Below, piece by piece: positions 41,969 to 43,120 of a stretch of DNA of 64,000 bases. A program made the position numbers and the translations under genes. Location: the NCBI GenBank assembly GCA_039028615.1, contig JBCCHT010000026.1:96001-160000 (forward strand). The letters are read 5' to 3'. Positions within the stretch are counted from its first letter, which is position 1. Each line of letters begins with the position of its first letter. Source of the stretch: Myxococcota bacterium. Lineage in GTDB: Bacteria > Myxococcota_A > Polyangia > Nannocystales > Nannocystaceae. The notes under the pieces are model-generated. The model saw only the letters and a list, made by a program, of their open reading frames with translations. It had not been told where the DNA came from and ran no database searches.

Positions 41969-43120
41969 GTGAACCGTCGAAATACCGATCATCTCGCCGT
42001 CGATGCACCCATCGTGGCCGTGTTCACGGCGAATCCATCCACCTTGACTCGCCTCGATCTCGAAGGGGAGCTCCGCAGCATCACTGACGAACTCGACCAA
42101 GTCGGGCTCCGTGGGGTCCTGCGTTTCCAGTGCGAGCCGGCTGCGACCCCCGCCGCGGTGCAGCGTGCCCTGTTGATGGATCGACCGACCGTGGTCCAGT
42201 TCAGTGGCCATGGGCGGGGCAGTGGTCGTCGGCGCCGCGCGTCGACACATGGCCGCCGCGACTTGGTCGTGGAGGATGAGCCGGTCGGTGCCACGGGGAT
42301 CATGATGCACGGAGATGCGAGGCGGCCGGTGAAGGTCGTCTCCGGGGCCGCGCTCGGGGATCTGTTCGCCAAGGCTGGCTCGAGCGTTCGTCTGGTGTTC
42401 CTCAATACCTGTCACTCCGAGGAGCAGGCGGACGCGCTCATCGAGCATGTCGATTTCGTCGTTGGAGTCGATGGTGCGATCTCGGACGAGGCGGCTCGGG
42501 TCTTTGCCACCGCGATGTATCGGGGACTCGCGTTCGGCCGTTCGGTCCGGGCTGCGTTCGATCTTGGGGTCACCGCCCTGAAGATGGAGGGGCTCGAGGA
42601 CGACTGGGCTCTGCCCGTGCTGAGTGTGAGGCCGGGAGCGGATCCGAAGGCGACGACGTTCGTCGATGCTCCGAAGCGCAGAAATGAGCAAGCCTGGGAC
42701 GCCTTCGTCTCGTACGCGAATACGGATTTCGAGCCCGTCCGCTGCCTCGCCGAAGCACTCCACAAGCGACAGCTCGAGATTTTTCTCGACGAATGGGAGA
42801 TCTTGCTGGGCGAAGAAGAAGGACGAAAAAAGGACGACGGCATCCGGGGCAGCGCCCACGGGATCTTGGCCCTGTCTCCGCAGACGATGACTCACCCCTG
42901 GGTCGAGGCGGAGTATGCGGCTCTGCTCGAAAAGGCGGTCTCAGACCGAAGGCGGCTGATCCCGGTGCTCGTCGGCGAGGGGGATGCTCAGCTTCCCCCC
43001 TTCCTCAGAGCGCGCCGCTATGTGGACCTCCGCGGAAAATCGGGCGCTGCGTACGAGCGAGAGGTCGAGTCGATTGCACTGGCGCTACGGGGAATACGGC
43101 GCGGGCCACCGCCGCGCTGA
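41969..43120 (+). CDS. CHAT protease-TIR domain fusion
   Basis: CHAT: FTANP...LDLEGE, VVQFSGHG (His81), LVFLNTC (Cys148). TIR: WDAFVSY...IFLDEWEI...PWVEAEY...LIPVL. Confidence 0.9.
   Translation: MNRRNTDHLAVDAPIVAVFTANPSTLTRLDLEGELRSITDELDQVGLRGVLRFQCEPAATPAAVQRALLMDRPTVVQFSGHGRGSGRRRRASTHGRRDLVVEDEPVGATGIMMHGDARRPVKVVSGAALGDLFAKAGSSVRLVFLNTCHSEEQADALIEHVDFVVGVDGAISDEAARVFATAMYRGLAFGRSVRAAFDLGVTALKMEGLEDDWALPVLSVRPGADPKATTFVDAPKRRNEQAWDAFVSYANTDFEPVRCLAEALHKRQLEIFLDEWEILLGEEEGRKKDDGIRGSAHGILALSPQTMTHPWVEAEYAALLEKAVSDRRRLIPVLVGEGDAQLPPFLRARRYVDLRGKSGAAYEREVESIALALRGIRRGPPPR

Follow-up and report, generated by a model that had tools for sequence, protein, structure and literature searches.

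The window, that is, the whole 64,000-nucleotide stretch of a Nannocystaceae contig (JBCCHT010000026.1) analysed here, carries a gene encoding a CHAT protease fused to a C-terminal TIR domain. The genes around it comprise a caspase-like protease gene on the minus strand, followed by kinase, 136-aa, ECF sigma factor and CHAT-TIR genes on the plus strand, a STAND gene of TIR-DUF4062-NACHT-FGS architecture on the minus strand, and a 366-aa gene and a double ATPase gene on the plus strand (Table 1). GC content is 62–66% between positions 36001 and 50000, compared with about 66–71% across most of the window. Together with low scores of the genes from caspase to CHAT-TIR under the codon model of the genome, this is the pattern expected of an acquired island. 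A 206-aa gene of no known family (35183–35803, minus strand) lies directly downstream of the caspase and did not turn up in the related loci compared. Rfam gave no match within the window, a search for sigma-70 promoters found none, and the numbers of terminators did not depart from chance.

Table 1 Predicted genes, domains and active-site residues at the CHAT-TIR locus, in window coordinates.
Feature	Position	Strand	Basis or remark
629-aa caspase-like protease, PCaspase position, predicted executioner	35820–37709	−	His76, Cys137
Ser/Thr kinase, PCk position	38032–40686	+	Pfam Pkinase; catalytic motifs; one predicted membrane helix (hydrophobic stretch)
136-aa protein, no known family, PCi (inhibitor) position	40777–41187	+	
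ECF sigma factor, PCc-sigma position	41249–41902	+	Pfam sigma70 r2/r4
CHAT-TIR, predicted initiator protease	41969–43120	+	383 aa from GTG
CHAT domain	42008–42640	+	Residues 14–224 (Pfam and own profile)
CHAT catalytic residues	His81 codon 42209–42211; Cys148 codon 42410–42412	+	Invariant in 38/38
TIR domain	42689–43093	+	Residues 241–375 (Pfam and own profile)
TIR residues	Gly281 (BB loop) 42809–42811; Trp311 42899–42901; Glu315 42911–42913	+	
TIR-DUF4062(NIR)-NACHT-FGS STAND NTPase, predicted sensor	43195–46710	−	Pfam; convergent on CHAT-TIR; longest ORF reaches 46755
366-aa protein, no known family	46893–47993	+	Syntenic with STAND gene in relatives
AAA + HerA-like double ATPase	47990–51814	+	Syntenic in genus

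The CHAT-TIR fusion proposed in the sequence-only reading of the locus is real, with Pfam CHAT (residues 18–196, E 2e-7) and TIR_2 (residues 246–363, E 2.9e-20) both over their curated cut-offs. Residues are numbered with the GTG at 41969 taken as the start; database records of the protein begin at residue 18 (366 aa). The translated ORF confirmed His81 (within SGHG), Cys148 (within NTCHS) and the WVEAE stretch (Trp311 to Glu315) where that reading had placed them, and Glu315 aligns with the AbTir-type W-x-x-x-E motif. The best PDB match of the family profile is 8tl0 (E 5e-20), whose HG and naC motifs lie opposite the His and Cys of CHAT-TIR. The gene is single-copy in the 12.3-Mb genome, in which only one further protein with a TIR of the same clade was found, and the close relatives that carry names are Nannocystaceae and Myxococcales records. 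Rarity of the fusion in itself was rejected, as CHAT and TIR are both present on 53 of 145 new representatives and Atlas clusters have 52–166 members.

The cassette and the STAND neighbour

In the accessible text of its description, the cassette of Haliangium ochraceum has the order SAVED-CHAT, sigma factor, PCi, kinase, PCaspase; filamented SAVED-CHAT cleaves PCaspase, which cuts the sigma factor, PCi and other proteins, and PCi has a predicted CI-2-like fold and no homologues were found for it (bioRxiv 10.1101/2023.06.23.546230; PDB 8tl0). As proxies for the H. ochraceum genes we used two loci with 8tl0 orthologues, L189 and L233, whose SAVED-CHATs are close to 8tl0 (E 5.7e-140 and E 1.5e-99, respectively) and whose gene order is the published one. 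The window caspase is ~30% identical to the caspases of both loci, the kinase 43% and 38% identical to the kinases of L189 and L233, and the sigma factor 32% and 36.5% identical to their sigma factors. The 136-aa protein has no match in Pfam, NCBIfam or PADLOC, and an alignment of its family, built without the small genes of L189 and L233, matches the small gene at the same position in L233 (97.3% probability) and L189 (E 5e-11). Its Atlas model is of low confidence (pTM 0.55) with mostly Ig-like matches at TM <0.5, and the protein is labelled an inhibitor because of its gene position. The 629-aa caspase-like protease gives no match in Pfam, its profile matches metacaspase structures (best E 8e-11), and His76 and Cys137 are invariant in 20/20 homologues. 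Judged by homology and gene order, CHAT-TIR is the occupant of the SAVED-CHAT slot in a homologous cassette of caspase, kinase, small gene and sigma factor. CHAT-TIR has a TIR instead of a SAVED domain, and no SAVED match was found in the window's genome (G000). No cOA source (type III CRISPR or CD-NTase) was detected in 11 neighbouring proteins by Pfam or 9 by PADLOC, nor a SMODS cyclase in G000 by a one-sequence SMODS profile. Two more sigma/kinase/caspase clusters in the same genome (L252 and L253, at G000:C88 and G000:C14) have CHAT or SIR2-like neighbours and no gene of the 136-aa family.

The STAND protein has Walker A and B motifs and a TIR glutamate, and its N-terminus, like CHAT-TIR, matches TIR_2 in Pfam; the E-[YFH] motif of its DUF4062 domain is matched in 11 of 12 orthologues. 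A search of G000 for a near-identical template repeat of the FGS end found none, and there is thus no sign of DGR diversification. The 366-aa gene and the double ATPase occur in 6 of the 73 genomes of the order, all from the window's genus and mostly beside the STAND gene, and their membership in the system is uncertain. This pair has weak matches to MADS mad8 and BrxD.

Full-length CHAT-TIR was present at 12 loci (the window, L001–L008 and L046–L048; the last three repeat genomes already surveyed and were counted once), a 28%-identical CHAT-TIR-nSTAND (L062) being set aside from this count. On genome contigs, a single-protein scan gave no match and an alignment-based scan did. A STAND gene adjoins CHAT-TIR in 10 of the 12 loci; its TIR is visible in 8 of these, and a contig end removes it in the other 2. 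Of the remaining loci, L007 is too short and L006 shows no STAND within 10 kb. All four cassette genes are present in 5 of the 12 loci. A contig end truncates the cassette in L001 and L002; in L004 and L005, both short contigs, it is not adjacent; and L006 and L008 lack it within 10 kb. In G049, one of the 5 loci with the complete cassette, it lies ~11 kb from CHAT-TIR, beyond the double ATPase, with all parts kept despite the rearrangement.

Conservation of the protease and TIR residues

A homologue search with CHAT-TIR returned 53 matches, 41 covering at least 70% of the query, and the alignment (n = 38) comprises the query and 37 matches; the query's own record, a 666-aa form and two partial proteins were left out. 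All 38 members carry His81 and Cys148, whereas the Glu315 column has 18 Glu, 14 Gln, 2 Val, 2 His, 1 Ala and 1 Met among the 38, indicating that selection acts strictly on the protease but not on the NADase residue. The TIR is nearly as conserved overall as the CHAT (mean identity 55% vs 61%), with the BB-loop Gly281 in 38/38, the pocket residues Tyr249 and Asp253 invariant and Trp311 in 34/38. On a quick tree, for which the Glu column itself was retained in the alignment, the state of Glu315 changes at least 8 times, with 5 changes forced by well-supported branches, and at L047 the entire locus is retained with Gln at this site. The TIR of the neighbouring STAND, in contrast, has Glu in 11 of 12 orthologues, and TIR domains related to it have Glu in 117 of 124 (domains from the 120 matches listed out of 417). 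More distant CHAT+TIR fusions have Glu in 42 of 53, in a noisier alignment.

Intact catalytic sites in both domains, as proposed earlier, are a property of the window copy, which has His, Cys, Trp and Glu; family-wide, only the protease dyad is invariant. The further proposal, that the TIR could deplete NAD+ as a second output, finds no support at the level of the family, since Glu is found in only 18 of 38 members (Gln in 14) with repeated changes on the tree and a whole locus retained with Gln. Going by its residues, the window's own CHAT-TIR may still be NADase-active, and any NAD+ output is more likely to come from the STAND's own TIR and DUF4062 (NIR) domains. In the part available of a study of TIR-like NIR NADases, a Glu-to-Gln change abolishes function (bioRxiv 10.64898/2026.09.04.749371). 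AbTir is described, in the accessible literature on it, as both a scaffold-type filament and an NADase, with Ala mutants of S176, R178 and Y207 weak or dead; CHAT-TIR has Glu283, Gly285 and Ala314 at these positions, mismatches that are weak evidence because active TIRs vary there.

Matched domains on CHAT and STAND proteins

Cassette neighbourhoods were picked from caspase, CHAT and SAVED match lists, and so are not a random sample; the fetched neighbourhoods were annotated with Pfam and our own profiles. The fetched stretches of 20 of the 22 complete four-gene cassettes include a CHAT gene, the exceptions being L135 (none in the stretch) and L234 (cut), and the domain fused to CHAT in these 20 is TIR in 5, SIR2-like in 7, SAVED in 4, SEFIR in 1, ECF in 1 and unannotated in 2. 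Twelve of these 20 cassettes have a STAND neighbour. In 11 of the 12, the STAND begins with a domain of the same family as the CHAT partner (5 TIR, 6 SIR2); these matches are not independent, as they derive from about two lineages and hand-picked loci. Beside the four SAVED cassettes, one of which has a SMODS cyclase, no STAND was detected. The domain match recurs outside cassettes in L008 (with two TIR-nSTAND1-WD40 genes, a sensor of another type), L226 and L038. Mismatches were seen at L142, where a SEFIR-CHAT lies beside a STAND with a degenerate-CHAT-like N-terminus, and at L222, where a TIR-CHAT lies beside an EAD1-NACHT-FGS gene; L043 and L061 have no domain common to CHAT and STAND, and L139 has a SIR2-CHAT and no STAND in 20 kb.

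Six loci (L134, L136, L137, L138, L140 and L141) carry a sister system consisting of the caspase cassette, a SIR2-nSTAND1(-WD40) gene and a SIR2-CHAT gene. At the motif positions that we take to be those of the SIR2 active site, the catalytic His is missing in 8/8 and the Asn in 7/8 STAND SIR2s, and the His is kept in 9 of 13 CHAT-side SIR2s. With STAND SIR2s lacking the catalytic His, the SIR2 sister system could hardly operate through signal production; the need of SIR2 for Asn and His follows the DSR2 literature, in its accessible part. G050 encodes a TIR-CHAT and an EAD1-CHAT whose CHAT domains are 87.6% identical over 193 aa, which argues that TIR swaps with EAD1, a known non-catalytic adaptor; the EAD1-CHAT lies beside a caspase, and its EAD1 matches that of an EAD1-NACHT-FGS gene (40%, E 3e-22). 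At L191, one 2250-aa ORF (2992–9744) joins two TIRs, SEFIR, CHAT, metallophosphoesterase, NACHT and FGS, and faces a TIR-NACHT-FGS gene (12280–15828).

The paired TIRs of CHAT and STAND are only ~28% identical, and a locus-specific similarity of the partners was rejected, since the partner from the same locus outranked copies from other genomes in just 1 of 8 TIR pairs and 2 of 8 SIR2 pairs. In quick trees, the CHATs of CHAT-TIR proteins form their own clade (support 97) apart from SAVED-CHATs, and the window caspase groups with SIR2-linked caspases (support 99), with the G049 caspase placed elsewhere. These placements indicate that cassette parts have been shuffled. A direct swap of SAVED for TIR on one CHAT was rejected, as the CHAT of CHAT-TIR is not sister to that of SAVED-CHAT, and for the same reason its substrate specificity for the caspase is assumed.

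Several other arrangements were observed among the fetched loci. L182 (8343–15567) has the window's gene order ending in a CHAT-SAVED with SAVED at the C-terminus, the reverse of the published fusion, and L143 (8319–9806) has, immediately following the cassette caspase, a CHAT fused straight to an ECF sigma domain. SAVED-CHAT with sigma factor, small gene and kinase occurs in L196, L197, L198 and L220, with no caspase in the fetched stretches and a SMODS cyclase in two of them, and L221 (3382–5736) encodes a SIR2-SAVED-CHAT triple fusion. L146 has a CHAT protein, a MoxR-like ATPase, an FGS protein, a caspase and a vWA gene in a row, resembling a MoxR-vWA ternary system linked to the window's caspase family. 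L009 and L017 encode GAP1-N1...CHAT fusions with a CHAT close to the CHAT-TIR clade.

Candidate routes from sensor to caspase

The reading that we favour, and hold to be somewhat better than an even bet, is that the oligomerised STAND recruits CHAT-TIR by TIR–TIR contact and that CHAT then cleaves the caspase, so that the TIR would be a docking adaptor and not an enzyme; the binding and cleavage steps are ones that we infer. The NACHT-FGS protein would bind an invader molecule via its lectin-fold FGS end and oligomerise, and the clustered N-terminal TIRs would nucleate CHAT-TIR head-to-tail via BB-loop contacts, which the accessible literature describes for MAL, MyD88 and AbTir. Clustering would rigidify and activate CHAT, as cA3-driven filaments do for SAVED-CHAT; CHAT, as initiator, would cleave the neighbouring caspase, and the caspase, as executioner, would cut the sigma factor, the small protein at the inhibitor position and host proteins, leading to dormancy or death. 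A putative oligomerising or docking role of the TIR fits the invariant Gly281 (38/38) and the matched TIR on the neighbouring STAND. In favour of the cascade we count the homology of the cassette to that of the SAVED-CHAT loci, the CHAT gene at 20/22 complete cassettes, the STAND beside CHAT-TIR at 10/12 loci, the domain matches within (11/12) and outside cassettes, the STAND SIR2s without the catalytic His, the exchange of TIR and EAD1 in G050, the more relaxed Glu of the CHAT-side TIR (18/38 vs 11/12 on the STAND TIR), the single-chain fusion at L191 and the TIR+nSTAND1 and TIR+CASPASE neighbours in published source data (PMC8195603). The sequence-only reading had likewise proposed the oligomerising role of SAVED for the TIR, and the shared slot in a homologous cassette strengthens the analogy with SAVED-CHAT beyond that reading, but the matched STAND TIR points to sensor-nucleated assembly instead of self-assembly alone. 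Weighing against the cascade are the narrow base of the domain matches, the mismatched loci, the lack of both STAND and caspase near CHAT-TIR in L006 and of a caspase in L008, the low similarity of the paired TIRs, the placement of the CHAT apart from that of SAVED-CHAT, the opposite strands of the CHAT-TIR and STAND genes and the Glu kept by the STAND TIR, which fits signal-making.

The retained glutamate leaves open an alternative, which we regard as unlikely, in which the STAND TIR makes a cADPR-like nucleotide and the TIR of CHAT-TIR, often with a dead Glu, is its receptor and polymerises as SAVED does with cA3; such a system would cross type IV Thoeris with SAVED-CHAT. The asymmetry in Glu (11/12 on the STAND TIR vs 18/38 on the CHAT TIR), the conserved pocket (Tyr249 and Asp253 invariant, Trp311 in 34/38), the occupation of the same slot by SAVED, a nucleotide receptor, and the TIR-to-caspase signalling known, from the part of the literature available, in type IV Thoeris would all suit it. 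Against it stand the STAND SIR2s of the sister system, without the catalytic His in 8/8, the non-catalytic adaptor EAD1 in the CHAT-partner slot, and the DUF4062/NIR NADase domain of the STAND itself, which would consume the substrate.

Also rather improbable is that these genes are mere neighbours in a defence island, CHAT-TIR belonging with the STAND or with the caspase cassette only, or the kinase/sigma cassette serving CHAT-regulated stress or developmental signalling with no killing cascade. The convergent orientation of CHAT-TIR and STAND, the absence of any caspase from the 10 kb around CHAT-TIR at L006 and L008, the ~11 kb gap in G049 and the position of its caspase outside the window's caspase clade, the abundance of membrane kinase/ECF pairs in the window and the synteny of the STAND with the 366-aa and double ATPase genes would be expected under such an arrangement. 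It accords poorly with the presence of CHAT at 20/22 cassettes, a fused domain that tracks the sensor type, the retention of all parts in G049 and the biochemical demonstration of a homologous cascade for SAVED-CHAT in the accessible text of that work (10.1101/2023.06.23.546230). Least probable, and quite doubtful, is a dual-effector model along the lines of the earlier proposal, in which the TIR, besides self-assembling and activating CHAT, supplies a needed second output by depleting NAD+: Trp311, Glu315 and Gly281 of the window copy, Glu in 42/53 distant fusions and the double nature of AbTir speak for it, but Glu is missing in 20/38 members with at least 8 changes on the tree, Gln abolishes function in NIR NADases as cited above and, as weak evidence, the three AbTir positions differ.

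The window resembles the SAVED-CHAT/PCaspase locus in having a CHAT fusion with sigma factor, small gene, kinase and caspase, and in 8tl0 being the best PDB match of the family; it differs in having TIR rather than SAVED, placed C-terminally rather than N-terminally on a CHAT of another subclade, and a STAND neighbour rather than type III CRISPR or a CBASS cyclase. With STAND-FGS/EAD systems, as far as their description is accessible (Kaur et al. 2021, PMC8195603), it has in common TIR+NACHT+FGS, the presence of CASPASE+bDLD3 genes beside STANDs and the principle of homotypic recruitment, and the source data accessible there include two TIR+nSTAND1 genes, each followed by TIR+CASPASE. The same text treats TIR as an NAD+ effector, not an adaptor, and its systems, unlike the window, come without a second protease or an inhibitor, kinase or sigma cassette. 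Unlike EAD-type adaptors, window-type paired TIRs are not especially alike. In the accessible account of bacterial CARD/NLR-like gasdermin systems (Wein et al., PMC10312443), an NLR-like sensor, an adaptor domain on a protease and two proteases in an operon recall the window, with a death-fold CARD and gasdermin or other effectors where the window has TIR and a PCaspase cassette; the NLR-adaptor-protease logic is also known with amyloid motifs, from sources accessible in part. Type IV Thoeris, in the text available (bioRxiv 10.1101/2024.10.24.620036), likewise puts TIR and a caspase-like protease in one immune system, but with a stand-alone TIR, N7-cADPR and a single protease, whereas the window has TIRs fused to STAND and CHAT and two proteases. 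Avs with a NIR (DUF4062) NADase (bioRxiv 10.64898/2026.09.04.749371) share DUF4062 with the window STAND, which, compared with the accessible description, also has a TIR, ends in FGS and not TPR, and is accompanied by a protease cassette.

The accessible part of a Thoeris survey sets Avs TIRs aside and does not contain the word CHAT, and no description of the window's locus type was found in the available portions of a STAND survey and a DGR paper. CHAT-TIR fusions and TIR+NACHT+FGS are already on record; in the openly accessible literature searched, which covers the SAVED-CHAT work as a preprint, we found no description of 'CHAT-TIR', a STAND-linked PCaspase cascade or a STAND-triggered two-protease cascade.

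Descriptions of bacterial TIR and SIR2 domains mostly present them as enzymes that consume NAD+; animal TIRs are mostly presented as scaffolds. Extending the favoured cascade, we consider it a serious possibility, at a little under even, that the locus encodes a bacterial apoptosome with a scaffold TIR, in which an NLR-like NACHT-FGS sensor, MyD88-like TIR–TIR recruitment, a CHAT initiator and a caspase executioner under inhibitor control would act in sequence. The locus would then be one plug-in version of a myxobacterial protease cassette whose trigger alternates between STAND sensors and cyclic nucleotides, the latter read by SAVED, and in which TIR, SIR2 and EAD1 serve as interchangeable adaptors. 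The natural Glu and Gln orthologues make the question of scaffold versus enzyme directly testable. If true, a bacterial TIR would be a receptor-to-caspase adaptor, with SIR2 reused likewise, and the gene at the PCi position would be supplied with a family. The roles of caspase-like proteases associated with Avs and CBASS are a stated gap in the available text of the type IV Thoeris work (bioRxiv 10.1101/2024.10.24.620036), which the cascade would address. It would extend the PCaspase cascade beyond CRISPR and CBASS, and would place a chain of sensor, initiator and executioner in one locus, much as in the animal apoptosome.
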